DNA of 43,265 nucleotides from Escherichia phage MarieHeimVoegtlin_Bas70 (PQ850619.1), one strand, 5' to 3'; counted from the first letter of the stretch, positions 14,796 through 30,341 are shown. Numbers and translations: made by a program. The notes: a model not told the origin generated them from the letters alone.

Positions 14796-15157
14796 AAGCG
14801 CTGTATGAATTTGCGCAATGGTGCTTTGTCGACCGCCACAAACGTAAGCAATTCGACGACATCGCGGCGGGCCACCAGGCGGCTTTGATTGCAATGGGCG
14901 TGATTAAAGAACCGCAGATGAAAGAAGCGACGGGGCCGGAATGCCCCGTTTCTCTTATCGACGTGTTCGAGAAATACCGTGCCATTAAATTCCTACAGCG
15001 CGAAACAGATGATACTATCGTTATAATCCCGCGCGATGCGCTCAAATGGCAAGATTTGGTAGCGTTTCGTGATGTCGCCGGTTACGGCATAAGTTTGTTC
15101 GAAGCCGAGGTTATCATGGGCTTAGACGGAATATTTGAGGGCAGAGAAGATGGCTGA
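14379..15157 (+). CDS. tail assembly chaperone frameshift product (G-T-like), -1 programmed frameshift
   Basis: The -1 frame is open from 14777 to 15157 with no ATG until 14894. It overlaps the last codons of the G-like ORF. Candidate slip site GGAAAAG at 14786-14792. The product ends inside the tape measure start region. Confidence 0.5.
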
Positions 15158-17462
15158 TACGGCTTCCCTAATCGCCAGAGTAAAAACAGAAGGTGCTGAC
15201 GTAGCTGCCAAACAGCTTGACGCTATGGCGTCGTCTGCAGACCGCGCTGATACCGCGGTAAACAAGCTGACTCCGGACGTTAATAAAGTAAACTCCGCTA
15301 CGTCTAAAGCGGCTTCTGACGGTTTCGCTAAGTTCCGTAACGCTGCCGGGCAGGTAGGCTTCCAGGTGCAGGACATGGTTGTCCAGCTGCAATCCGGTAC
15401 GTCAGCATTTGTGGCAATAGGCCAGCAAGGTTCGCAACTTGCGGGTGCTTTCGGCCCTGGTGGTGCTGTGCTTGGGGCCGTAATCGCACTAGCGTCGGCT
15501 GTTGGTGGAGTACTGTATAAATCACTAACCGAAGCAGAAGGCAGTTCAAAAGACCTCGAAGCCGCGCAGAAACAGTTAAAAGATACTTTCCAGCAAACGG
15601 CATCTGGCTCTCTCGAGCTGACAGACGGCCTTATCCAGCTTACCCAAATCAGCAGAGAAGCAGCGGAGACTCAGCTTGCTCTGGCTAAGGCTAACGCGGA
15701 CCTTATCGCGCAGCAAACCGCTAAAGCTGTTCGTGAAGATGCCGAATCATGGGAAACGTGGAAAGCCTCCACGGCGTCGGCGATTAGCCAGTATGATGCA
15801 TTAGTCTCTAAGGGCGCAGATGTAGGCGACACATTAGAAAAACTCGGCGGCACTTACGAGGGCAACATCGTAGGCGTCAACATGCTGGCGCAGAATATCG
15901 CGGAGCTTAGCAGTAAGTTCGGAGTTAACCGTGACCAGGCGCTGGAGATGATAGCGGCGCAGAGTGCGTTTAACAAAGAGCCAACCGCCGAGAATGCCCG
16001 TCGCATCGCCGATGTGTTTACCGACTGGCTCGGTAACACAAAACAGTTGAACCCGGAACTTATCCGCCTGACGGACAACGCCAACAAGAACGCCACGGCA
16101 CTGGAGAACGCGGAGAAGTCAGCAAACGCGGCGGCAGAGGCCCAAAAGAATCTTGGTCGCAACGTCAACTCAACCACGCAGAGATTCCAGGAACAGAACG
16201 AAGCTATCGTCAAAAACCAGCAAATCGCCATCTTAAGCGACCGTGAGCGTATCCGGGCGCAAGCTGAACTTGATAAACAGGCGTTCGCTAAACGTGAAGC
16301 CGTCACCAAAGAACAGATAGCCGCGTATAATGCGGCCCGCGACGCGGAAGCGCAGCAAGACATCGCCCGCATTGACAAGACCGAGAAAGAGAAGGCCGAC
16401 CGCGAGGCTAAATCGAACGAGGAACGTCTGGCGGCACAAGCCAAACGCGAAGAAACAGCGGCACAACGTCAGAAAAAAGCGGCGGAAGATTTCCTGGCTA
16501 CTGTCGACCGCACAACCGGAGACGAAATTTCACGTATCACAGCGGCAGAAGAACAGAAACTGGCGAAACTTGAAGAGTTCAACCGCGCCGGAACGATAAG
16601 CCAGCAGCAGTACGAAAACGCCAAAACTCAAATTATGCTCACCGCCGAGCAGGCCAGACAGGAAGAACTGGATAAGAAAAGAAAAGAGCAGCAGGAAAAG
16701 CAGCAGAAAGGCGACGACTTCATGGCCCAGATTATGGGTCAGAACGCCGCTGAGCTTGAGCTTCTCGACATCCAGGAACAGCAGAAACTGTCGGTAGCAG
16801 ATAAGTACCGCGAGCAGGGTTTGATTAGTGAGAAGCAGTATCAGGCTGCGCTTAATGCCATCAACGAGCAGTACGCCACGAAGCGTGCCGACGCAACGGC
16901 AACGGCCTTCGGTAACATGGCCTCAAACATCGGTTCGGCTTTGGGCGAGGCTTCTGGCGCGTACAAGGCATTCGCTATCGTGCAGGCCACTATAGCCACG
17001 TACACCGCGGCTATTGAGGCGTATAAGTCAACAGCGGCTATCCCTGTAGTTGGCCCGTTCCTGGCTCCTGTAGCTGCCGCTGCTGCCGTTGGGGCGGGTA
17101 TGGCGCAGATTTCCGCTATCAGGTCCGCACGTGAACAGGGCGGACAGTTATCCGCGGGGCAGGCTTCAACCATCGCCGAACGCGGTAAACCAGAAGTTAT
17201 CATGCCCGCTGGTGCGTCACGTGTACGCACCGCACAGCAGATGAAAGAAATTATGGGGCAAAACGGGTCTTCTTCCGGACCGTCTAATGTTACTATCGTA
17301 AACAACACGAGTTCTCAAATCGGCAACGTATCCACTGAGCAAGATGATGAAGGCCGTTTGCGTATCATCATCGAGGAGCAAGTGGCTGCCTCTTTGCGGA
17401 ACAGTAACAGTAAGATTAGCAAGGCCCGCAAGGCCACAAGAAATGCGCCGGGGTTTAAATAA
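15150..17462 (+). CDS. tail tape measure protein
   Basis: 771 aa from ATG 15150 (track ORF starts at TTG 15135). Long A/Q/E/K-rich predicted coiled coil. Directly after the chaperone pair. Confidence 0.8.
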   Translation: MADTASLIARVKTEGADVAAKQLDAMASSADRADTAVNKLTPDVNKVNSATSKAASDGFAKFRNAAGQVGFQVQDMVVQLQSGTSAFVAIGQQGSQLAGAFGPGGAVLGAVIALASAVGGVLYKSLTEAEGSSKDLEAAQKQLKDTFQQTASGSLELTDGLIQLTQISREAAETQLALAKANADLIAQQTAKAVREDAESWETWKASTASAISQYDALVSKGADVGDTLEKLGGTYEGNIVGVNMLAQNIAELSSKFGVNRDQALEMIAAQSAFNKEPTAENARRIADVFTDWLGNTKQLNPELIRLTDNANKNATALENAEKSANAAAEAQKNLGRNVNSTTQRFQEQNEAIVKNQQIAILSDRERIRAQAELDKQAFAKREAVTKEQIAAYNAARDAEAQQDIARIDKTEKEKADREAKSNEERLAAQAKREETAAQRQKKAAEDFLATVDRTTGDEISRITAAEEQKLAKLEEFNRAGTISQQQYENAKTQIMLTAEQARQEELDKKRKEQQEKQQKGDDFMAQIMGQNAAELELLDIQEQQKLSVADKYREQGLISEKQYQAALNAINEQYATKRADATATAFGNMASNIGSALGEASGAYKAFAIVQATIATYTAAIEAYKSTAAIPVVGPFLAPVAAAAAVGAGMAQISAIRSAREQGGQLSAGQASTIAERGKPEVIMPAGASRVRTAQQMKEIMGQNGSSSGPSNVTIVNNTSSQIGNVSTEQDDEGRLRIIIEEQVAASLRNSNSKISKARKATRNAPGFK

Positions 17463-22313: not shown

Positions 22314-24245
22314 ATGTCAAGCGGATGCGGTGACGTTTTAAGCCTGGCGGATTTACAAACCGCCAAGAAACACCAAATTTTTGAAGCCGAGGTTATCACC
22401 GGTAAAGCTGGCGGTGTAGCTACGGGTGCTGATATCGATTACGCGACAAATCAGGTTACAGGGCAGACTCAGAAGACGCTCCCGGCCGTGTTGCGTGACG
22501 CCGGGTTCAGACCTGCGCCATTCACATTCGAAACAGGTGGGACTTTGGGCGTTAACGACGCTGACCTGGCGGTGTTGTGGCCAGGGCCATCAGGCGACGG
22601 CAACTATTATGCATGGAAAGGTGCCCTGCCAAAAACCATCCCGGCATCTTCAACCCCGGCGTCTACGGGCGGAGTAGGCCAGACCGCATGGGTTGCCGTT
22701 AGTGAAGCTGCATTGCGCCGTGATTTGGCCCTAAGCACTGGCGCAGGGCTAGTCGGTACGTCTTCGGGTCGCACAGTGCAAGGCGAGGTTGACCATTTCA
22801 AAATAGGGTATATGACACCCGATGATTTCGGCGCGGTGGGTGATGGTGTTACCGACGACACCGCGCCTTTGCAACAGGCTATTGACTATTGCTCAAGCAA
22901 CGGTATCGCGTTAAGAATCCCCGCAAAATCTTATGTTTGGAATGGCGGTATTATAACTTCACCCGTAACAATAATCGGTGACAGACGTCCTGATTACAAT
23001 CTTAGCTCCAATTCTATGTCTAACGGGTCTGTTATAATTGGCAATTTAAGATTTTCCGCAAGCCAGGTGATTATTAAGTCACTTGGTGTGCGTAGGCCTA
23101 CAGGCTCCCCCGGAGATTGTCTGGTGTTATCGACCGATAACTATGCTGGTGGGTCTTGTATTGTTCAAGATGTAGTTGCCGCGGGCCTTTCCGGTTCGGA
23201 CACGTACCACAGCGTTCTTGTTGAAGGCTACGATTCCGCGCATGTATCTCAAATAACTGGCGGTTATAATCTTTTTGGCCTCGCGATTAAGTCAAGAAAC
23301 GTTGTTGCCAGAGGCGTAATAACCGTAAGCTGTGATACTGGCGTTATCATTAAATCTGATAGTGAGTTCAGCACGGCAAAAAATGTGGTGCTGGACGGGC
23401 ACATTAATGTCGGTAATGGTGTTTCTAGTCAAGGTGTTTGGATTTACAGCACAACCGCACAACTTGAGCGTATTACCTGCGCAAACTTACAAAGCATCGA
23501 TTCCGCTATACATATGCGGATTAAGTCCGAAAACGTAGCTAATGACGTGCAAATTGTTGGGGCAAATTATTCAGGATCTACTTATGCGGATGTGCTCGTC
23601 GAAGGCACTTCGGCTGGCACGTTGTACAATGTTAGTTTAGATAGTATAACCGCAGTAAATAGCCAGAAATTTATGGCTGCAGGTTTCTGTGAACAACTGA
23701 TGGTAACAGGATTCTATGGGTCCCTGAAACCTGGCGCTCCCGCCGATACTGCGTTTGAGGTTAGCGCCGCCGTAGGGCTTTTTAGCGGGTCAAATATCCA
23801 ACTAGTCCGTCAATACCGCCGTGACCTAATGACAATGAATCTCGGTAACAGTTATCTTAATAATAGATTATCATCTGTTAAGGCGAAAGTAATAGGAAAC
23901 GGCAAACCTAGGCCGGGGTATAAAGAACAGAATCTTAGCGGCGCTGCGGCTACAATGATTGTTGGCGACAGTTTGGGGCCCTCTGGGGTTGTGTCTGTCA
24001 CCGCGTTATCCACCGGCAGTTCATTCAGCAGTATTGCTATTAATGACGACTATGGTCAGCCGGTTAAGCCAGGTTTTCTTCTAATAATCCGAAACGCATC
24101 CACTATCCCGTTCGTTATGAACCATAATCCAGGGTCTGGTGGAATCGCAAATAACGGGGCGGTGGGTAAGACCATTATGGGCGGAGACACTATAATGTAC
24201 GTTTTTGACGGGGCGAATTGGCGTCAAACTCCATCTATAGCTTAA
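22314..24245 (+). CDS. tailspike / tail fiber with pectate-lyase-like beta-helix domain
   Basis: 643 aa. Motif GYMTPDDFGAVGDGVTDDTAPLQQAIDYC is typical of pectate-lyase-fold right-handed beta-helix enzymes. Last structural gene before a bidirectional terminator. Confidence 0.6.
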   Translation: MSSGCGDVLSLADLQTAKKHQIFEAEVITGKAGGVATGADIDYATNQVTGQTQKTLPAVLRDAGFRPAPFTFETGGTLGVNDADLAVLWPGPSGDGNYYAWKGALPKTIPASSTPASTGGVGQTAWVAVSEAALRRDLALSTGAGLVGTSSGRTVQGEVDHFKIGYMTPDDFGAVGDGVTDDTAPLQQAIDYCSSNGIALRIPAKSYVWNGGIITSPVTIIGDRRPDYNLSSNSMSNGSVIIGNLRFSASQVIIKSLGVRRPTGSPGDCLVLSTDNYAGGSCIVQDVVAAGLSGSDTYHSVLVEGYDSAHVSQITGGYNLFGLAIKSRNVVARGVITVSCDTGVIIKSDSEFSTAKNVVLDGHINVGNGVSSQGVWIYSTTAQLERITCANLQSIDSAIHMRIKSENVANDVQIVGANYSGSTYADVLVEGTSAGTLYNVSLDSITAVNSQKFMAAGFCEQLMVTGFYGSLKPGAPADTAFEVSAAVGLFSGSNIQLVRQYRRDLMTMNLGNSYLNNRLSSVKAKVIGNGKPRPGYKEQNLSGAAATMIVGDSLGPSGVVSVTALSTGSSFSSIAINDDYGQPVKPGFLLIIRNASTIPFVMNHNPGSGGIANNGAVGKTIMGGDTIMYVFDGANWRQTPSIA

Positions 24246-24249
24246 AACT

Positions 24250-24275
24250 AAGGCCCCGTTTGGGGCCTTTTCTCT
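24250..24275. terminator. bidirectional intrinsic terminator
   Basis: aggcccc-gttt-ggggcct hairpin with AAAACTA on the 5' side and TTTTCTCT on the 3' side. Sits at the boundary between + structural and - replication genes. Confidence 0.7.
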
Positions 24276-24276
24276 A

Positions 24277-24411
24277 CTCTTCTGATAACTTCTCCAGCAC
24301 AAACGCCAGTTGCGCATTAGCGGCGTCTCTTTGCTGCCGTAGTCGTAGAACCTCTTCTTCCAGTTCCTTGATACGTTTTTGCAATGCTGGAATAGGAGCT
24401 ATGATGTTCAT
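24277..24411 (-). CDS. hypothetical small coiled-coil protein (44 aa)
   Basis: ATGA overlap with the helicase stop. Heptad-like MNIIAPIPALQKRIKELEEEVLRLRQQRDAANAQLAFVLEKLSEE. Below the ORF-track cutoff, hand-translated. Confidence 0.3.
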
Positions 24412-25832
24412 TTCTTACCTCGTCTCTTCATGTAATTAAGCAACTCTTCCTGGACCGATTTCTTCTCGTCCGTACGCGCCGCAACAACCTCATCCAGCGT
24501 GTCTTTAGCAACGATGTGATAGAGGAACACCGGGCGCTCGTGGCCCGCCTGTTTCTGACGGACCGGGCCTATACGCTCGACAACCTGCAAATAGTGCTCA
24601 AGGTTCCAGCCTTGTGAGATGAATGCCAGATGATGTCCGCCGTCTTGTAAATTCAAACCATGGCCCGCTGACGCAGGATGTACGCATAAGATTTCTACTT
24701 CACCGCGGTTCCACGCTTCCATCTGCTTATTACCCCTGGCACCTTTGGCAAAGGCCTGTGCTTGTGGGAATCGCTTAAGGATGCGCTCCAGTTCGTGCTT
24801 GAACTGATAGGCCACCAGTAACGGTGCCCCCTGTAACTCCTCAACAATGGACTCGAGCGCATCAAGTTTCGTGTCGTGCACTTTCTCCCATTCTTTGGTT
24901 GATTCGCCATCTGGCCCCGATACATACACGGCACCGGAGGCAATCTGTAGGCACTTCGACGTCTTCGCCGCAGCGTTAGCCGCTTCAACTTCTCCGCTTT
25001 CCAGTTCCGCGAATAACTTCTCCTCCATATCGATGTACGCCTGACGTGCTTTCTTCGGCAGGTCGATTTCAACCGGCACAATAATCGGCGCTTCACACCC
25101 GAACCACTCGGCGGCGTCAATCGTGAGACTAATGTCCTTCATCTTCTGGTGAATTTCATTATCCGCACCCGGGCGTGCGTGGTATTCACGGGCCATCGCA
25201 GATTTCCCTTTCTGTACCGAGTTAAACCAGCGGTCGGTGAATGCTGTGTACGATGACCCCAGGCGCTCGCCTGCGTCGATAAACCAGTTCTGCCCCCACA
25301 AGTCCTTGAGGCCGTTTGGTGACGGCGTGCCAGTCAGGTTAATGAAACGCTTAACTTTGCCAAATGCCACTTTACTAAGCGCCTTTGCCCTCTTGCTGCC
25401 TCCAGAACGGCTACGGAATGACTTGAGCTTCGTGCTTTCATCGGCGACGATAACCGTAAAAGGCCAGTCGTCTTTGCCGTAGTAGTCAATAAGCCACTCG
25501 ATAACTTCGTAGTTCGTGCACACCACGTTAGCATCTGACTCCAGCGCCGCGATGCGGCGCTTCTCTGAACCGGTCGCGTCTACGACACGCAGACATGGGA
25601 AATTCCACTTAGTTTGTTCCGCCGGCCATGTACCTGATGCAACGCGCAACGGGGCGAGGATTAACACGCGGTCCTCTTCTGTAAGCTGCCCGTTGCGGAA
25701 CAGTCGGTTTAATGTCCACAGTACGCTGCCAGTCTTCCCGGCGCCCATGCTCGCCCAAATATTACAGCGATGGTGCCGCAACATGAACGAAGTCATTAGC
25801 TTCTGGTATTCGCGCCTTTGAAACTTACTCAT
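24408..25832 (-). CDS. SNF2/DEAD-like superfamily 2 helicase
   Basis: 474 aa. Walker A GAGKTG, DExx box VADESTK, C-terminal helicase motifs. Confidence 0.75.
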   Translation of the reverse strand: MSKFQRREYQKLMTSFMLRHHRCNIWASMGAGKTGSVLWTLNRLFRNGQLTEEDRVLILAPLRVASGTWPAEQTKWNFPCLRVVDATGSEKRRIAALESDANVVCTNYEVIEWLIDYYGKDDWPFTVIVADESTKLKSFRSRSGGSKRAKALSKVAFGKVKRFINLTGTPSPNGLKDLWGQNWFIDAGERLGSSYTAFTDRWFNSVQKGKSAMAREYHARPGADNEIHQKMKDISLTIDAAEWFGCEAPIIVPVEIDLPKKARQAYIDMEEKLFAELESGEVEAANAAAKTSKCLQIASGAVYVSGPDGESTKEWEKVHDTKLDALESIVEELQGAPLLVAYQFKHELERILKRFPQAQAFAKGARGNKQMEAWNRGEVEILCVHPASAGHGLNLQDGGHHLAFISQGWNLEHYLQVVERIGPVRQKQAGHERPVFLYHIVAKDTLDEVVAARTDEKKSVQEELLNYMKRRGKK

Positions 25833-26618
25833 TTACGGCCCCATGAACGCCTTTATAAATTCAGCGGCTACTTGCGGGACGATAGCATTGCCGTAACCGC
25901 GCAATCGTCCCACTCTGGCGGGTACCCCATTAGCCAGCGGGAATGTGCTGGGTTCAACTGGCCTGAATTTTCCATCCCGGCATCCGAGCCAGTCAGCATC
26001 TGACCAGAACCCGTTAGGCGGATTGGCTGTGTCAGAGATGCCTCTGTTTGCAGATTGTGGCCCCCGTTCCTGCCCTGATGGCCTGCTCCCGCCGAGTTGT
26101 TCGCACACGGTGTTGGCCAGTTGCTGCGCTCCGAAGAACAATCGATTCCTTTTGTGCGGTGCGCCGACGCTACAAGCTGGGAGTACGGCAAACCCGACGG
26201 CGTAGTCTTCTCTTTCCAGGTGAGTTTGTAAATCGCACATCCACGATTTTGCAATTGCTGCCGCAACCTGCTCCCCAAAGATGACTGGAGGGTGGCACTC
26301 GCTGATGAGGTCGAGGAGCACAGGTGCGAGGTGTCTCTGGTCGAACTGTCCGAGTTGCTTTCCTGCCGTGCTAAACGGTTGGCAAGGCGGACTTCCCGTC
26401 CATATAGGCGTATCTTCAGAAACTCCCGCAAGTCTGAGCGCGAGAGGCCAGCCGCCGATACCCGCGAAAAAATGACACTGGGTGAACCCGTCAAGGTCTT
26501 CTGGCTTAACTTCGGTAATGCTTCTTTCATCTACAACTCCAAAAGGTATGTGACCCTGTTTTATCAACTCACGCAGCCACGCGGCTGCGCCTTTATCCCA
26601 TTCATTGTAATAGTTCAT
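25833..26618 (-). CDS. DNA (cytosine-5)-methyltransferase
   Basis: 261 aa. Motif I FAGIGG, motif IV PPCQPFS (catalytic PC), motif VIII-like HKRNRLF, C-terminal GNAIVPQVA. Confidence 0.8.
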
Positions 26619-26806
26619 TTCGCCACCAGAACTAACTCTTTACGCCCGAACGCCGTAATATTGCCGGTTACATCTTCGATAACCAGTTTACCGTTCGACT
26701 CGACGAACACTGTATCAACGGCAACAGGACGACGGGTCTTAACGTTGAAAATCATGTCGCCTGGTACGATGTCACGTGCAGGTTTGCGGTCATATTCGTG
26801 TTTCAT
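26615..26806 (-). CDS. hypothetical protein (63 aa)
   Basis: ATG with AAGGAA Shine-Dalgarno. ATGA overlap with the methyltransferase gene. First gene downstream of the leftward promoter at 26840-26868. Confidence 0.5.
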   Translation of the reverse strand: MKHEYDRKPARDIVPGDMIFNVKTRRPVAVDTVFVESNGKLVIEDVTGNITAFGRKELVLVAK

Positions 26807-26836
26807 TTCTCAATTCCTTATATTGTTGGTGTAGGA

Positions 26837-27121
26837 CTAACTATAATAGTTCGCTATTAGGTCGTCAACCTGTTTGAACGAACCAACGACAAAAACATTT
26901 GCACCACGTTTACGCATCCGCTCGTGCTCTCGTATCTGGTGCGGGTCTGGCTTCGTGTTTTCGTCTTTCTTAACCTCGACGAACCAGACGATGCCGCCAG
27001 GGAGAATTACCAGCAGGTCGGGAGCGCCGGAACGCCCCTCGTAGGAAAGTTTACGAACGAGGCCCCCAAGGGCCTCAAATCGCTCTTTTGCGTATTTCTG
27101 GATGCGGCCCTCTTTAGTCAT
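26837..27121 (-). CDS. VRR-NUC domain nuclease (PD-(D/E)xK)
   Basis: Start taken at internal ATG 27121 (track ORF extends to 27301 from a TTG). Motifs GAPDLLV and VWFVEVKK fit the VRR-NUC D...E.K core. Confidence 0.55.
   Translation of the reverse strand: MTKEGRIQKYAKERFEALGGLVRKLSYEGRSGAPDLLVILPGGIVWFVEVKKDENTKPDPHQIREHERMRKRGANVFVVGSFKQVDDLIANYYS
26840..26868 (-). promoter_or_regulatory. sigma70-like promoter (TTGACG-N17-TATAGT) with AATAGTTCGCTATT palindrome in spacer
   Basis: Minus-strand reading gives TTGACG, 17-nt spacer, TATAGT. Same architecture as the promoters at 30401-30429 and 32950-32978. Confidence 0.55.
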
Positions 27122-27270
27122 GACCGCAGCATCCAGGTAAGGAAAGCCCCGCCTAGAAGGGCAACACCGGCAAACTGAAAGAACAGGCCGTAACAGAACA
27201 TAGCAGCTATTCCCGCACCGAGTAACAGTGCGAGCATGGTTACTATCGACCCGAATACAAACATTCTCAT
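27118..27270 (-). CDS. hypothetical small membrane protein (50 aa)
   Basis: ATG with GAGGGG Shine-Dalgarno. Two hydrophobic segments. ATGA overlap with the VRR-NUC start. Hand-translated. Confidence 0.3.
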   Translation of the reverse strand: MRMFVFGSIVTMLALLLGAGIAAMFCYGLFFQFAGVALLGGAFLTWMLRS

Positions 27271-27352
27271 AACACGCACCCCTCACGTTTGGTATGCTCA
27301 ATACCGCAGCGCGGGCAGATTCGACAGTCTTCTTCGTAGAACCGGTAAATTT

Positions 27353-27484
27353 TCATTCCAGCACCCACAGATAAATTGCGATGAACATGCCCAATATGGC
27401 AACCATCATGCCGTATTGACCCTCGTGACAGTAGACACCTGCGGCAAATCCCGCCAGTACCGCGATAATCAGTTTACTTAGCAT
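27353..27484 (-). CDS. hypothetical small membrane protein (43 aa)
   Basis: ATG overlapping the last codons of the polymerase gene. Almost entirely hydrophobic (MLSKLIIAVLAGFAAGVYCHEG...). Hand-translated. Confidence 0.3.
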   Translation of the reverse strand: MLSKLIIAVLAGFAAGVYCHEGQYGMMVAILGMFIAIYLWVLE

Positions 27485-29654
27485 AGCGTTTTAACTCCTG
27501 ACCTTCCGCTACAAGAGGGAACCCCTCCGCCCATTCTGGTAATTCGCACATCAATCGCTCAAGCTCTGCGACATTGTATTCCGGCGTATCTGGAGTTTCG
27601 CAGATAATCTCATCGTGGACATGAAGTACAATTGGATAACCGTTTGCTTCTACGTTCAGCAGCGCGTTGGCCAGCAAATCACGGCACAACGCCTGAGTGC
27701 AGTTTTCCACCAGTTTACCAGAGTAGGTGTACTGGAAGCCCCACTGCCGGGTTAACTGGTTTTCGCCCTGGTACTTGATGCGCACGTTAGTAGACACCTT
27801 TCCATCTTCGTCTGTCTCTTTCGACACACTTAATCCGACGCCCGGGTATGACATAACGCGACCCGACGGCAACGTCATGCGCAACCACCAGCCCGCGACT
27901 TTGTCGCCGTTGTTGTCTGTCTCTATGTTACGCGAAAACTTAACGCCTCGCGGTCCTGCGGTGAACTCTTTACCTGGATTGCGGATAGCGGCCATAGCTG
28001 CGTCTTCAATATCTCGCCAGAAAGCTACTGTTTCAGGGTGTGACTCTCGCCACATACGCTTGATAGCGTCACAGGTACGCCACACTTTCTTATCAAGAAT
28101 ATACGATGGTCGGTCATCCTTCTCCCCGGGTCGCGGCGGTCGCTTGGCTTCCTGAATACGTGCCCATTCATAGCCGCGTGCAGTAGCCGCCCAGATGTGG
28201 TCCGGGAAAGTACCGTCCATTGTTTTTGACATATCAACAAGGTCAAGTCCGAGGTTCTTAGCAAACTGAACGAAAGCGCCAACACCACCAGCGTAGCCGA
28301 GGCCAAGCTCGCAGGCTTTACCAATCTGGCGCAAGTCTTTGCGTTCCTTCTTAATGTAATCCGGCTCCATGCCGAACATCTTACCCGCGGTTACACAGTA
28401 AATGTCCAGCCCGGCGCGGAACGTATCTAGCGCGGTTTCTTCGCCTGCCAGCCACGCAAGCCCCCGACCTTCAACGTTAGAGTAATCGGCGACGACAAAC
28501 TTATGTCCAGCTTCCGGTATAATGCAGCTACGAACGGTAGATGCCGTCAGCTTGGCTACGTCAAATCGGCGGTGCGCCCGGCCCTTAAGTAACGCTGAAA
28601 TGCCTTTATCCAGTTCATCATCATGATAGTACCCACGCGCCAGGTTCTGTGGCTGGAAGCCTTTACCCGCGAACCGTAACGTACGCTTTGCCCCACCGTA
28701 CTGGATACAACCGCGGCGTCGGTCGTCCGACGAGCGGCCTAACAGCAGCGGGTTATATTTCGTGGGCGCTGTTGACGCGGCCCCGAGGCGCATTTCTATA
28801 ATCGCGCGGGCGTCGTCCGGTAAATCATCGTCCGCCAGCAGGTCGTTAAGCGTTGACTTCTGTGCATTGTGTATGCGGTGCGCGGGCGCAAGTTCACGCA
28901 GAATCGGAAGGAAGTCTTTACCGGTAAGCGAGCCGCCGTATTTACGTTGAGCTTCTTCCTGTAACTGTGCCTTGTGCTTCTCTACGGCTTCAATCGCGGC
29001 TTCCGCCAGTGCGACGTCAACCTTAAATCCGCGGTCGTTGATTAACTGGTCAAGTTCCAGTACACGGTCTTCGAATTCGGAGTTACCCCACCGCGGCAGC
29101 TTATGGAACACTTCACGCATCGCTGTGATGTCACTCACGGCATACTTGATAAACAGCGCCCACTCATCCGGGTGCGTTTCCGCGGTATAGCGGCGGATTT
29201 TGTAGTTCTTCGGCGTCGGTTTAGAGAAACGCTTAATCAGAGCCTTGCCGCGTTTATCTTTCGCGTTGTCTGCAGACACGCCCAGCACTTCGCACAGCGC
29301 ATCAAGAGAACCCGGCAGCGCGTGACGGAACGCCCAAATCATAGTATCAATGGTGTTGCTTACCGGAATATCAAATCCCCAGCAGTGCTTCATGACGAGC
29401 CTATCGAAAAGTCCACCGTTGTGCCACACCATCTTGATGCGGCTGTTGGGCTTAACAAGGCGGCGCAGTGCGCGGTGTAAATCCCCCGGCATGTCGCTGC
29501 CGTCGGTGCAATCCCATACCCGCACAGGTTCGTCGTCAAAAGCATATGTACAGATAAGCACTTCGGTTGACGGGTGTTCGGCGTAAGCGTAAGAACCGAC
29601 TTTCTTCAAATCGGCTTCTGAGAATGTTTCAAAGTCTAAGAACAGGTAACTCAT
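27474..29654 (-). CDS. DNA polymerase, family A, with 3'-5' exonuclease domain
   Basis: 726 aa. Exo I motif LDFETFS. Motif B-like RQIGKACELGLGYAGG. Motif C VLHVHDEI. ATG with AGGGG Shine-Dalgarno. Confidence 0.85.
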   Translation of the reverse strand: MSYLFLDFETFSEADLKKVGSYAYAEHPSTEVLICTYAFDDEPVRVWDCTDGSDMPGDLHRALRRLVKPNSRIKMVWHNGGLFDRLVMKHCWGFDIPVSNTIDTMIWAFRHALPGSLDALCEVLGVSADNAKDKRGKALIKRFSKPTPKNYKIRRYTAETHPDEWALFIKYAVSDITAMREVFHKLPRWGNSEFEDRVLELDQLINDRGFKVDVALAEAAIEAVEKHKAQLQEEAQRKYGGSLTGKDFLPILRELAPAHRIHNAQKSTLNDLLADDDLPDDARAIIEMRLGAASTAPTKYNPLLLGRSSDDRRRGCIQYGGAKRTLRFAGKGFQPQNLARGYYHDDELDKGISALLKGRAHRRFDVAKLTASTVRSCIIPEAGHKFVVADYSNVEGRGLAWLAGEETALDTFRAGLDIYCVTAGKMFGMEPDYIKKERKDLRQIGKACELGLGYAGGVGAFVQFAKNLGLDLVDMSKTMDGTFPDHIWAATARGYEWARIQEAKRPPRPGEKDDRPSYILDKKVWRTCDAIKRMWRESHPETVAFWRDIEDAAMAAIRNPGKEFTAGPRGVKFSRNIETDNNGDKVAGWWLRMTLPSGRVMSYPGVGLSVSKETDEDGKVSTNVRIKYQGENQLTRQWGFQYTYSGKLVENCTQALCRDLLANALLNVEANGYPIVLHVHDEIICETPDTPEYNVAELERLMCELPEWAEGFPLVAEGQELKRYAK

Positions 29655-29714: not shown

Positions 29715-30341
29715 TTAGCGGCGACGACGTTCACGGCGCGGTGCTTCATCTTCTTCGTCATCTTCCAGGTCATTGACGCTCGCGGCGACTTTAGAACCGC
29801 CGAACGCTTTGCCTTCGCCAACGTATTTAATCGCCAGCAGGTTAACGCCGAGGACTTTGTATTTCTGGCTGAACCAGATTTCAACGCTTACGTTAGCTAA
29901 GCATCCGCTGTAAACCTGTTCACCTTCAATCTGTTCGCCGTCTACGTTGAAGTCCTGCTCTACCTGAGTCTCACCTTTTTTAGAGGTTACAATCAGCGGC
30001 TGTTTCTGTGCCTTCGCTTTGAAGTAGAAGCCTTCCGGGAAGTCTTCAAACGGATTGTCGCGCTCGGCAATGTCTTTAATCGCGCATTTATCCATGTGCT
30101 TACCTTCACCGTAGTTGGACTTCATCCATTTCTCGGCAGCGGCTGCGCCTAACGCTTCTTCAACTACAGCGTAAACGGTGTCGTAGAGTGCATCGATTTG
30201 AGCATGGTCAGACGGCAGGATGATAGTCGCGCTGTACTGGCCTTTAGTGATTGAGCCATCATCGTTTTCACGGTCTTTTTCACGTTCAAATACGTTAACC
30301 CAAGCAGTGTTTACTTTACGCAGATTCAGTTTAATACCCAT
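29715..30341 (-). CDS. putative ssDNA-binding protein (DUF2815-like)
   Basis: 208 aa with highly charged C-terminal tail DLEDDEEDEAPRRERRRR. Adjacent to the polymerase and a PD-(D/E)xK nuclease, the usual neighbourhood for such proteins. Followed by its own terminator. Confidence 0.45.
   Translation of the reverse strand: MGIKLNLRKVNTAWVNVFEREKDRENDDGSITKGQYSATIILPSDHAQIDALYDTVYAVVEEALGAAAAEKWMKSNYGEGKHMDKCAIKDIAERDNPFEDFPEGFYFKAKAQKQPLIVTSKKGETQVEQDFNVDGEQIEGEQVYSGCLANVSVEIWFSQKYKVLGVNLLAIKYVGEGKAFGGSKVAASVNDLEDDEEDEAPRRERRRR

Follow-up and report, generated by a model that had tools for sequence, protein, structure and literature searches.

The Bacillus phages SPR, phi3T and rho11s encode multispecific C5-cytosine methyltransferases with tandem exchangeable recognition modules between motifs VIII and IX. 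These enzymes are single polypeptides, and the number and type of their modules differ among related phages. The small polypeptide of M.EcoHK31I is reported, in work by Lee, Kam and Shaw from 1995, to be encoded within the large gene in another reading frame. PMC3404938 names M.AquI and M.EcoHK31I as C5-methyltransferases made of two polypeptides, and assigns motifs I–VIII and X of M.EcoHK31I to the large chain and motif IX to the small chain. A hidden out-of-frame HNH endonuclease, the 'ShiLan domain', is found in an actinophage methylase gene (PMC11855218). Here we analyse a C5-methyltransferase gene in a 43,265-nt stretch of DNA (the window) from Escherichia phage MarieHeimVoegtlin_Bas70 (PQ850619.1). 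Two of its reading frames are considered, frame A with the catalytic core and frame B, a nested ORF in the +1 frame. All features described below lie on the minus strand, and coordinates are those of the window.

Genomic context and neighbouring genes

The window derives from an E. coli Kagunavirus and shows about 96% identity with Bas73, Bas74 and NTEC3 (3.3 kb query). The closest matches of the block studied here include Bas72–74, with 94–97% DNA identity. Four minus-strand genes are found, encoding an SNF2 helicase, the C5-methyltransferase, a 63-residue ORF and a VRR-NUC nuclease. The order in the cluster is DNA polymerase, three tiny ORFs, VRR-NUC, the 63-residue protein, C5-methyltransferase, SNF2 helicase and a 45-residue protein. 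The order of the four genes is shared by Bas73, K1G, fTaEco03 and one Logan contig. The block genes are joined by a 4-nt ATGA overlap or by a stop followed at once by ATG, and these tight junctions fit a single transcription unit. Almost certainly, the block forms the downstream portion of a leftward gene cluster for replication and recombination in a Kagunavirus. The gene identities, leftward tight packing and coordinates given by an earlier note on this DNA are confirmed by the ORFs and by Pfam, PHROG and PDB matches.

The stand-alone VRR-NUC nuclease (94 aa, 26837..27121; phrog_93, 6.9e-34) has the VRR-NUC fold and a PD-(D/E)xK active site, visible in the sequence as the signature APD...EVK. 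It is nearly identical to PDB entry 4QBN (2.4e-54, residues 2–93 aligned, few substitutions) and also matches 4QBO (2.7e-9), while the Pfam VRR_NUC match (1e-3) is under its cut-off (19.6 vs 23.8). No meaningful difference is seen from the stand-alone viral VRR-NUC 4QBN, which has reportedly been characterised as a phage Holliday-junction resolvase. The 63-residue ORF (26615..26806) matches phrog_4879 (5.4e-46), where no function is assigned, and has no Pfam or PADLOC match; its stop overlaps the methyltransferase ATG (ATGA).

A sigma-70-like promoter candidate, TTGACG-17-TATAGT (26840..26868, 10 of 12 positions matching), lies within the final 30 nt of the VRR-NUC gene, upstream of the 63-residue ORF. 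It is kept in nine Kagunavirus relatives, with TATAGT invariant and the -35 element varying at its last base only (G/A), in a region that is 95% identical as a whole anyway. Five promoter-like sites are found in the region against 4.7 expected, which is the chance level. The candidate could drive the 63-residue ORF, the methyltransferase and the helicase. Co-transcription of the whole block from this site had been proposed; the site exists and is conserved, but it cannot transcribe the VRR-NUC gene, since it is located inside that gene's own 3' end.

The SNF2-family (superfamily 2) helicase (474 aa, 24408..25832; phrog_62, 2.8e-167) carries the Walker A motif MGAGKTG and the DExx box VADEST. 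Its ATPase domain is above the curated threshold (Pfam SNF2-rel, PF00176, 2.4e-13, 50.3 bits vs the 24.9 cut-off), GAGKTG and DEST are present in the translation, and Helicase_C is under its cut-off (19.4 vs 23.5). The last gene of the unit is a 45-residue predicted coiled-coil ORF (24274..24411; phrog_5915, 2e-27), whose ATG and the helicase stop share a 4-nt overlap and which is annotated in Bas73 and fTaEco03. Generic SNF2 matches of the helicase to ZorD, DpdE and DrmD are observed. A defence system (DISARM, Druantia, Dpd or Zorya) was rejected as a reading of the block. The matches are generic, at the domain level and far under the equivalog cut-offs (DrmD 29 bits vs 950, ZorD 14 vs 1500), no further components of these systems are found, and the context is that of a phage replication cluster. 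Processing of replication or recombination intermediates by the nuclease and the helicase, as suggested before, is reasonable in view of the near-identity to 4QBN and the position of the block after the DNA polymerase gene. For the suggested coupling of these two proteins with the methyltransferase, adjacency is the one argument for a specific functional link.

Catalytic core in frame A

Frame A (261 aa, 25833..26618) encodes the catalytic core of a C5-cytosine methyltransferase, with matches to PF00145 (4.8e-16), phrog_363 (8e-82) and M.HhaI (phmmer 1.3e-7; hhalign 98.3%). Its AF2 model has a pLDDT of 72 with residues 1–165 confident, and the best Foldseek matches are M.HhaI at about 5e-8. 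The catalytic and AdoMet motifs are all found, namely motif I FFAGIGG (26451–26471), motif IV PPCQPFS (26370–26390), motif VI FGEQV (26265–26279), motif VIII PHKRNR (26142–26159) and motif X GNAIVPQV (25869–25892). Residues Gly53, Gly55, Cys79, Gln80, Glu116, Arg157, Arg159, Gly243 and Asn244 are invariant in 53 homologues.

The order of motifs in frame A departs from the canonical order I to X. A motif II-like YYNEWD (26595–26612) and a motif III-like VVDERSI (26517–26537) precede motif I. YYNEWDK aligns with motif II of M.HhaI (residues 37–47), and FFAGIGG, although downstream, aligns with HhaI residues 2–33. In the hhalign alignment with M.HhaI there is a 35-residue gap at the place of HhaI motifs II–III, and residues 3–163 of frame A align to positions 25–158 of the TIGR00675 profile. 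The strand order of the AF2 model is consistent with beta2, beta3, beta1, beta4. The proteobacterial branch appears to carry motifs II–III before motif I, an order that to our knowledge has not been described for natural C5-methyltransferases.

Between motifs VIII and X, the frame A polypeptide carries neither a target-recognition domain (TRD) nor motif IX in the expected form. The PF00145 match spans only profile positions 64–160 of 324, no TRD is detectable in frame A, and the clearest motif IX-like sequence is in the other frame. The place of the TRD is occupied by a low-complexity linker predicted to be disordered (residues 166–203, 26010..26123), with AF2 pLDDT below 50 for residues 170–203. 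In relatives this linker has 22–124 codons, is rich in G/A/R/S and variable in sequence, and is always stop-free (0 stops vs 90 expected in 4535 linker codons of 58 loci). It does not show an A-type codon-position pattern. The methyltransferase had been described as having complete motifs; this holds for the catalytic core I, IV, VI, VIII and X, and it does not hold for the TRD or for the order of II–III. The C-terminal part of frame A contains a conserved segment (Trp205, Cys213, Arg214, Asp215, Arg219–Glu222, Arg235 and Val236). This segment may be a minimal recognition element or motif IX substitute, and A alone may be active.

A nested +1 reading frame

Frame B (220 aa, 25868..26530) lies entirely inside the methyltransferase gene and matches phrog_1008 (7.9e-53). 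The earlier note took the methyltransferase as one gene and overlooked this 220-codon ORF. Frame B is annotated in K1G (gp35, 'Mte8-like') and fTaEco03 (TE3_033) and unannotated in Bas73, and the Kagunavirus transcriptome paper gives expression at the gene level only. Its relatives comprise 5129 homologues and 9650 clusters at 50% identity. The two-frame arrangement is common to thousands of phages, where it is usually annotated as a single gene.

Virtually all relatives examined, which come from many phyla, keep frame B open and conserved. Among 80 IMG/VR loci with 46–100% identity to A, 79 have a +1 frame that is open over 220–320 codons, whereas the +2 frame has 5–29 stops. In a set of 80 genome loci spread over many phyla, frame B is nested in A in 71 and is never clearly free-standing; nested pairs are seen, for example, in epsilon15, RcCWillis, CarlMeissner, eiAU, Haboob, Tunturi_1 and Genki. 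Against shuffles that keep the A protein, 11 stops are observed in the +1 frame where 277 are expected, and none where 89 are expected in the 'shadow' region between motifs I and VI. Given the relatedness of the loci, these shuffle statistics overstate independence. In the first ~33 codons of frame A the +1 stops are not depleted (164 vs 134 expected), and the depletion begins at the start of B.

Frame B has a start of its own, with both a start codon and a candidate ribosome-binding site. A Shine-Dalgarno-like GGAG (26537..26540) is located 6 nt upstream of its ATG (26528–26530), and a TAG stop in frame B immediately precedes this ATG. In 66 of 80 loci, window residues 26–36 contain the first ATG of frame B. 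A Shine-Dalgarno-like motif is present upstream in 39 of 78 loci (50%) compared with a background of 9.4%, with a nominal binomial p of 5e-20 that likewise overstates the independence of related loci.

Selection along the gene changes from A only to both frames, then to B-like, again to both, and finally to A only. Synonymous diversity in frame A drops from 0.57–0.60 to 0.30–0.34 exactly where frame B is conserved, and codon position 3 of frame B is the most variable position in the module region. The gene therefore has the features of overlapping genes, i.e., a long, conserved and stop-depleted ORF and lowered synonymous variation together with a B codon pattern. On the earlier note's model, the locus would instead be a conventional orphan C5-methyltransferase made from one gene and having a complete motif set, and the +1 ORF would be an untranslated by-product of amino-acid composition and codon usage. 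In line with it, frame A matches C5-methyltransferases in Pfam, in the PDB and by fold, many annotations give one gene, and for each gene taken singly the length of the +1 ORF is only moderately unusual, at least one of 200 shuffles having reached it in 44 of 78 loci. However, composition alone cannot account for what is seen across divergent lineages, namely the depletion of stops, its sharp boundary where B begins, the suppression at synonymous sites and the B codon pattern. Furthermore, the modules of B are protein units common to unrelated phages, and B is significantly homologous to a TRD that is translated. Both points also speak against this explanation, and we regard it as highly improbable. 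Very probably, the methyltransferase gene is dual-coding and frame B is a real, selected coding frame.

Modules of frame B and their homology

Frame B as such is poorly predicted by AF2 (pLDDT 61, pTM 0.29), shows no PDB sequence match by profile and no significant PDB fold match, and has no match in Pfam, NCBIfam or PADLOC. Three elements are distinguished in it. A beta-hairpin (B residues 101–123, 26162..26230) is modelled with a pLDDT of ~90 and has the near-invariant residues Tyr101, Trp105, Thr110, Pro111, Gly113, Ala121 and Ser122; synonymous diversity of frame A at this place is 0.31. Its distal part aligns with LittleB gp78. By eye, similar hairpin sequences in the +1 frame are visible in other actinophage and Paenibacillus loci. 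The hairpin is followed by a 'WPTP' module (B residues 138–166, 26033..26119), the single TRD-like module of this phage, which aligns with the LLPTP modules of WillSterrel gp71. Relatives have one to about five such modules, which are recognisable protein units common to unrelated phages. The third element is motif IX-like (25904..25960) and overlaps the conserved segment of frame A; both frames are near-invariant there, with a synonymous diversity of 0.30 in frame A. Its similarity to M.HhaI KLHPRECARVMGYPDSYK is weak (18 columns, E 0.13).

A significant relation is found with the mycobacteriophage WillSterrel. The frame B profile aligns with residues 197–353 of its gp71 (hhalign 95.4%, E 1.9e-8), and within this alignment the motif IX-like element is matched to LNPAFPEWMMGWPTGW. 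This region of gp71 holds the LLPTP modules and is in frame with the PF00145 domain (residues 1–157) and the subsequent GNGVVPQQ. With mycobacteriophage LittleB gp78 the values are 95.8% and E 6.8e-9. In LittleB the A frame ends right after motif VIII, without IX and X, and the modules, the motif IX-like sequence and GNGVV are found in the +1 ORF. The second frame is thus needed in LittleB to complete the canonical motif set. Judged by profile alignment, frame B shares homology with the part of a single-chain C5-methyltransferase that holds the TRD and motif IX. The motif set is divided in the phage studied here, with I–VIII and X on frame A and the TRD-like modules together with the motif IX-like element on frame B. 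Among relatives, the AquI-like division of LittleB and further partitions are seen.

In some lineages frame B has no stop of its own and continues into the next gene, which encodes Dam, endonuclease VII or DUF2800. Such read-through into whichever gene follows shows that the C-terminus of B is not tightly policed. These in-frame fusions to Dam or nucleases, the largely disordered state of B in isolation and its lack of a curated family match would also suit a reading in which B is a genuine overlapping gene with another job (a DNA-binding regulator, a host-nuclease inhibitor or a targeting factor). In that case A, which retains all catalytic motifs and the conserved C-terminal segment, would be self-sufficient with a minimal recognition element. 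However, the fusion partner is merely the gene that happens to be downstream, B is homologous to an in-frame TRD/motif IX segment of a single-chain enzyme, and it is nested in an A-type gene in most loci and never clearly free-standing. In addition, the A frame of LittleB entirely lacks IX and X. Another job for B therefore seems rather unlikely.

Two polypeptides or one

The path from A (I–VIII) to B (modules and motif IX-like) and back to A (X) reproduces the canonical order that is in frame in WillSterrel gp71. This would suit a single polypeptide made by programmed frameshifting. Ribosomes starting in frame A would shift by +1 once past motif VIII, so as to read the frame that codes for the TRD and motif IX, and optionally by -1 for motif X, giving a canonical single-chain methyltransferase. 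The A frame of LittleB, which stops after motif VIII with the remainder in +1, and a natural A-to-B fusion protein from a metagenome (P0127) agree with this idea. But frameshifting explains neither the absence of stops in B from about codon 30 of A onwards (the 0 vs 89 expected stops above), far upstream of where a shift would be useful, nor the conserved Shine-Dalgarno-like motif with its ATG, nor the openness of A through linkers of up to 124 codons. An unsystematic look did not reveal a slippery site. To be noted, the B hairpin (B101–123, corresponding to A131–153) shares its DNA with strands beta6–beta7 and motif VIII of A (A139–165). Both are conserved, and they cannot share one chain, which argues for two polypeptides rather than one. 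We consider frameshifting improbable.

The best overall explanation, to which we assign a probability of about 0.6, is a two-chain enzyme in which B serves as the recognition subunit. Frame A would form the large catalytic domain, with the AdoMet and catalytic motifs I–VIII and the C-terminal motif X helix tied by a disordered, stop-free linker. Frame B would start at its own GGAG-ATG inside A. Its first part would be a non-conserved 'shadow' of A, followed by a helix, the conserved hairpin, one 'WPTP' module and the motif IX-like helix, which together would make a small target-recognising domain. A and B would then assemble into an active C5-methyltransferase whose specificity is set by the modules of B, and module number and type would differ between close relatives. 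We infer translation of B, association of A with B, activity of the pair and a protective role. Biologically, the enzyme would methylate the DNA of the phage against a limited range of m5C-sensitive nucleases. The Kagunavirus isolates Bas70–76 'display a high sensitivity to RM systems' in the BASEL collection (PMC11990801), and any protection by the methyltransferase would therefore be narrow with regard to the systems tested there.

It is further conceivable, at somewhat less than even odds, that this large methyltransferase family (>9000 clusters at 50% identity, in many phyla) represents a natural 'domain split', in which specificity is re-programmed by modules of the nested ORF and the partition between frames has moved repeatedly. 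If so, a discontinuous large domain would be made as one chain, its halves tied by a junk linker, and an exchangeable multi-module recognition domain would be made as a second chain, encoded by the +1 frame of this linker and of a portion of the catalytic core. The division between frames would have shifted among single-chain, AquI-like, IX–X on the first chain and IX on the second chain. Gain or loss of modules in the nested ORF would change the specificity and leave the catalytic chain untouched.

Comparison with known systems

By layout, one of the closest known systems is M.EcoHK31I, which needs two chains and has motif IX on the small one. With its small polypeptide reportedly encoded out of frame inside the large gene, it would use the same genetic arrangement as proposed here. 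In M.EcoHK31I, however, the large chain retains the TRD, and the tiny second chain bears nothing but motif IX. In the phage studied here, the nested ORF covers 85% of the gene and takes in the entire TRD-like region together with the motif IX-like element (~125 structured residues, up to ~350 aa in relatives), which leaves the host frame with no more than a junk linker. Moreover, the phage enzyme is an orphan outside any R-M pair. The layout of M.AquI, whose alpha and beta subunits are encoded by two ORFs (Karreman and de Waard 1990), is matched by mycobacteriophage LittleB. Unlike in M.AquI, motif X stays on the catalytic chain here, and the second ORF lies wholly inside the first instead of following it.

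WillSterrel gp71 shares with frame B the xxPTP...D..GG modules and the motif IX-like LNPxFxEWMMGxPxGW, and with frame A a motif X of the type GN(G/A)(V/I)VPQ. In gp71, in contrast, the modules, the motif IX-like sequence and GNGVV are in frame with the catalytic domain, and motif I precedes II–III. The 'WPTP' modules can also be likened, by layout, to the exchangeable modules of SPR, phi3T and rho11s.

The 'ShiLan domain' is likewise an out-of-frame ORF nested in a phage methylase gene, where the host frame is stop-free and predicted to form a harmless loop, but that insert is a sporadic, mobile homing endonuclease (PMC11855218). The ORF described here is near-universal in its family, shows homology to the recognition domain of the enzyme itself, and overlaps conserved catalytic motifs. 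In kind, the proposed two-chain enzyme is related to M.AquI and M.EcoHK31I.

Organization of the gene block and its promoters

The region 24200-27500 is matched by 493 phage records in a megablast search, and the closest matches are the E. coli Kagunavirus phages Bas73, Bas74 and NTEC3 at 96-97% identity, with K1G at 92%. All genes of the block are read from the minus strand. Its upstream end is the DNA polymerase gene (27474-29654), followed by three tiny overlapping ORFs (27118-27484) that are hypothetical in relatives, the VRR-NUC protein of 94 residues (26837-27121), a 63-residue ORF (26615-26806), the C5-methyltransferase of 261 residues (25833-26618), the SNF2-type helicase of 474 residues (24408-25832) and, at the downstream end, a 45-residue ORF (24274-24411). 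Gene junctions are either 4-nt ATGA overlaps or a stop followed directly by ATG. The same gene order is found in the annotated Bas73, K1G and fTaEco03 and on one Logan contig. The identities proposed in an earlier note are borne out for the helicase (SNF2-rel, 2.4e-13; phrog_62, 2.8e-167), the methyltransferase (PF00145, 4.8e-16) and the VRR-NUC protein (Pfam 1e-3 only, but the solved nuclease 4QBN at 2.4e-54 over the whole length). A role in replication or recombination fits the helicase and the nuclease, while adjacency is all that speaks for the proposed functional tie to the methyltransferase. A reading as a defence system (DISARM, Druantia or a Zorya-like SNF2 plus methyltransferase) was dropped, as the defence-model matches are generic domain matches. 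As first described, a phage replication cluster in which an orphan methylase stands beside a helicase and a nuclease, the block is ordinary.

Two of the tiny ORFs encode hydrophobic products (43 and about 50 residues) and one of about 29 residues has a CxxC...C pattern. In Bas73 an 'endonuclease VII' gene (locus L001, 6277-6972) lies between the small ORFs and the polymerase gene, and another relative (locus L004) carries an HNH_3 gene at the same position; both are absent from the window (about 27484). This junction looks like a variable insertion site for nuclease genes. Elsewhere in the window, a strong AT-skew spike of 0.39 at 16001-17000 falls in the gene for the tape-measure protein (775 residues, 15135-17462), where A, E, K and Q are abundant, and is ordinary.

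The promoter at 26840-26868, from which the whole operon was thought to be transcribed, exists as a site (TTGACG-17-TATAGT, 26868..26840, minus strand, 10 of 12 positions matched) and could serve the 63-residue ORF, the methyltransferase and the helicase. It sits inside the last 30 nt of the VRR-NUC ORF and therefore does not serve VRR-NUC, whose transcription must start further upstream than 26868. The site is found in nine Kagunavirus sequences, with the surrounding stretch 95% identical overall, and the number of promoter-like sites in the region equals the chance expectation. A stronger sigma-70-like site (TTGACA-17-TATAGT, 30429-30401, minus strand, 11 of 12) upstream of the gene at 29715-30341 is a better candidate, and polymerase and VRR-NUC belong to the part of the leftward cluster that it could transcribe.

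Catalytic core in frame A

Frame A, the annotated methyltransferase frame, aligns to M.HhaI over the stretch of motifs I to VIII (hhalign 98.3%, E 1.2e-14), with a 35-residue gap exactly at motifs II and III of HhaI. A II-like YYNEWD(K) and a III-like VVDERSI precede motif I, FFAGIGG, within residues 3-56 (26451-26612, minus strand). In the AF2 model of A (mean pLDDT 72), residues 1-165 are confident and run strand, helix, strand and helix before the FFAGIGG strand. Residues 170-203 are disordered, and a weakly defined segment and a confident C-terminal helix follow. A Foldseek search with this model finds M.HhaI and other C5-methyltransferases. So frame A is a large catalytic domain whose AdoMet-binding half is locally permuted and in which a disordered linker (residues 166-203) replaces the target-recognition domain (TRD). 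The 'complete motifs' previously ascribed to this gene are thus not on one frame, since the TRD/motif IX-like segment is on a second one, frame B. The local swap of II-III before I differs from the circular permutation with IX-X before I, which is the sole type found in a survey of natural permuted C5-methyltransferases whose scan did not extend to II-III before I (PMC5944983). Relatives of frame A in Paenibacillus phages and actinophages have the canonical order at the N-terminus.

Selection on frame B

Frame B is a +1 ORF of 220 codons (25868-26530, minus strand) in the ORF list, wholly inside the methyltransferase gene. Its length in a single gene is only moderately unusual. What speaks against chance is that the ORF persists across lineages with saturated synonymous sites. 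Among 80 IMG/VR loci encoding frame A relatives at 46-100% identity, 79 have an uninterrupted +1 frame of 220-320 codons, compared with 5-29 stops in the +2 frame. When A codons were shuffled synonymously at 78 loci, 277 stops were expected in the +1 frame of the gene body and 11 were seen, all of them where A extends past B; the compared loci are related, so p-values are not exact. From motif I to VI there are no +1 stops (89 expected), and in the first ~33 codons of A there are 164 (134 expected). The first ATG of B corresponds to window residues 26-36 in 66 of the 80 loci and coincides with the sharp upstream edge of this stop depletion. An SD-like motif precedes it in 50% of loci, as against 9.4% at random positions. 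In the window this start signal is GGAG (26540-26537), a 6-nt spacer and ATG (26530), and the frame B codon that precedes this ATG is a stop.

Codon-position entropy gives the same picture on A-guided and B-guided alignments. Codons 1-115 of A show ordinary A coding, and the B sequence there is a non-conserved shadow. All three positions are constrained at A 116-152, where B encodes a helix and a hairpin. The pattern is A-like again at A 153-165 (motif VIII). In the linker, position 3 of B is the most variable and the A-type pattern is missing, and at A 205-240 all positions are constrained, by a motif IX-like element of B and a conserved segment of A. The last 20 codons belong to A only (motif X). 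Where two sequences share a residue in A, their codons for it differ in a fraction of 0.57-0.60 of pairs in A-only regions versus 0.30-0.34 at A 116-152 and A 221-240. The linker is kept open in A as well: its 4535 codons in 58 loci contain no A-frame stop, against 90 expected from B-synonymous shuffles, and therefore A must be read through to motif X.

Relatives and annotation of frame B

Frame B has 5129 homologues in a 90% clustered database, 9650 clusters of relatives at 50% identity (6270 below 1e-10) and its own PHROG, phrog_1008. Relatives differ by whole protein-like modules starting W-(P/A)-(T/S)-P (WPTP modules). Each protein has between one and about five of them, and relatives within Kagunavirus have 1, 2 or 4. 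A conserved YxLTWKxxxTPxG hairpin lies on one side of the modules and a conserved C-terminal sequence with (F/Y)PPEWD on the other. A scan with B motifs, one genome per species, finds an A-type ORF in the -1 frame at 71 of 80 loci. These 71 dual loci are spread over Pseudomonadota, Desulfovibrio, Bdellovibrionales, Myxococcota, Acidobacteria, Verrucomicrobia, Planctomycetes, Bacteroidetes and Lentisphaerae. Frame B is annotated in K1G and fTaEco03 ('Mte8-like', 'DNA methyltransferase') but not in Bas73, and it is the +1 frame of the annotated gene in epsilon15, RcCWillis, Vequintavirus CarlMeissner, eiAU and Haboob. In the Tunturiibacter phage Tunturi_1 (L089, 667-1664), gp50, the protein annotated as 'DNA methyltransferase', comes from frame B, and the 331-codon frame A with all catalytic motifs carries no annotation.

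In several lineages B has no stop of its own (Edwardsiella phage eiAU, L088 1237-2661; loci L016, L018 and L045; proteins P0123 and P0124) and reads in frame into the next gene, giving predicted fusions to Dam (PF05869), endonuclease VII or DUF2800/PD-(D/E)XK. The B-Dam fusion of eiAU and P0123 was dropped as a functional clue, because the partner is whichever gene lies downstream. A B-type protein of 547 residues (P0151) has a cysteine-rich insertion of ~200 residues (CTVCRQIK...CKECQREY) in its shadow part. By eye it looks nuclease-like, and a Pfam search with it gave no match. It brings to mind the out-of-frame endonuclease hidden within methylase genes of actinophages (PMC11855218).

Homology of frame B

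The AF2 model of B is poor. It leaves residues 1-75 disordered and then shows a helix (76-94), a hairpin predicted with confidence (101-123), a second, small hairpin (170-180) and a short helix (194-201). No match was found with the frame B profile against PDB sequences, with frame B against Pfam (67 members; also at E 10), or against NCBIfam and PADLOC, and the AF2 model had no significant Foldseek match among PDB folds. Against M.HhaI the resemblance is limited to 18 columns at motif IX, and a comparison with the C-terminal sequence of E. coli Dcm (an approximate query) was not significant. Actinophage relatives were reached via a motif string of their methylases (LLPTP..., LNPRFVEWLMGFPDGWT), which matched 401 phage records, almost always within features labelled 'DNA methylase'. 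One of them, gp71 of Mycobacteriophage WillSterrel, carries in a single frame PF00145 (residues 1-157), three LLPTP modules (the actinophage counterparts of the WPTP modules), LNPAFPEWMMGWPTGW and then GNGVVPQQ. The B profile aligns by hhalign to gp71 residues 197-353 (95.4% probability, E 1.9e-8) and to LittleB gp78 (95.8%, E 6.8e-9). These alignments make B a homologue of the segment that holds the TRD and motif IX in a bona fide C5-methyltransferase.

One chain or two

A double frameshift from A to B and back would give a single canonical chain. The hairpin of B (B101-123) is encoded by the same DNA as A 131-153, and it abuts or overlaps strands beta6-beta7 and motif VIII of A. Since both are conserved, the hairpin and the motif VIII region of A are not in one polypeptide, and the double frameshift was dropped as the main model. 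It is also disfavoured by B being open, with a start signal, from about codon 30 of A and by A being open through the linker. The hairpin overlap, the upstream start signal and the open linker together favour two proteins.

The partition between the two frames is fluid among relatives. In LittleB, A ends directly after motif VIII, and the hairpin, the modules, IX and X all fall in the +1 ORF; this is the layout of M.AquI. In the Arthrobacter phage MidnightRain, A carries IX and X, and the modules alone are in +1. The Paenibacillus phage Genki has the layout of the window with the canonical N-terminal order, and both ORFs are annotated. The 'single-chain' methylase of WillSterrel (L172, about 760-1290) keeps a +1 ORF of ~190 codons over motifs IV-VIII, with a hairpin-like sequence and one LLPTP module before its stop, where the main frame has a junk-like stretch of ~37 residues. 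This ORF may be left over from a re-fusion of the frames, or may yield a second product.

Significance

Frame B has been annotated sporadically since 2010. Our full-text literature searches found no paper that treats the A/B family as dual-coding, and the name 'Mte8' gave no lead in the literature. Should B be the recognition subunit, thousands of entries annotated as 'DNA cytosine methyltransferase' in phages and prophages would cover only half an enzyme; in Tunturi_1 and some other records it would be the wrong half. Specificity could then not be predicted from the annotated protein alone, and supposedly silent changes in one frame would alter the other. The A/B pair would be among the longest and most widely conserved same-strand overlapping pairs of dsDNA phages and bacteria, and a good test case for the origin and persistence of overlapping genes.

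The methyltransferase was also thought to protect the phage DNA from host restriction. The BASEL study reports high sensitivity to RM systems for Kagunavirus isolates, close relatives of the window phage among them (PMC11990801). This makes a broad anti-restriction effect unlikely, and a narrow one is possible.

Proposed assembly and comparison with known split enzymes

The large domain of C5-methyltransferases consists of motifs I-VIII and the C-terminal motif X helix, and the small domain (TRD and motif IX) is inserted in sequence between VIII and X (PMC3404938, PMC5944983). In the A/B pair, the large domain would be one chain, frame A, whose two parts are tied by the disordered linker. The small domain would be a second chain, frame B, for which the linker and the catalytic sequence on its flanks are read in the +1 frame. 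On DNA the two chains would come together, and the WPTP modules would set the specificity. We infer this assembly, its activity and its role in infection.

M.AquI and M.EcoHK31I are natural two-polypeptide C5-methyltransferases (PMC3404938). Split and embedded subunits are already known in this enzyme class; what is new and notable in the A/B family is the scale, the size of the overlap, the solution of a junk linker and a frame boundary that has shifted from lineage to lineage. The small chain of M.EcoHK31I is reportedly likewise embedded in the gene of the large one, in another frame. C5-methyltransferases have also been split by engineering into a large domain that keeps the C-terminal helix and a small domain on its own, and this has been pursued for targeted methylation tools. 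The A/B arrangement would be a natural version of this engineered large-domain/small-domain split.
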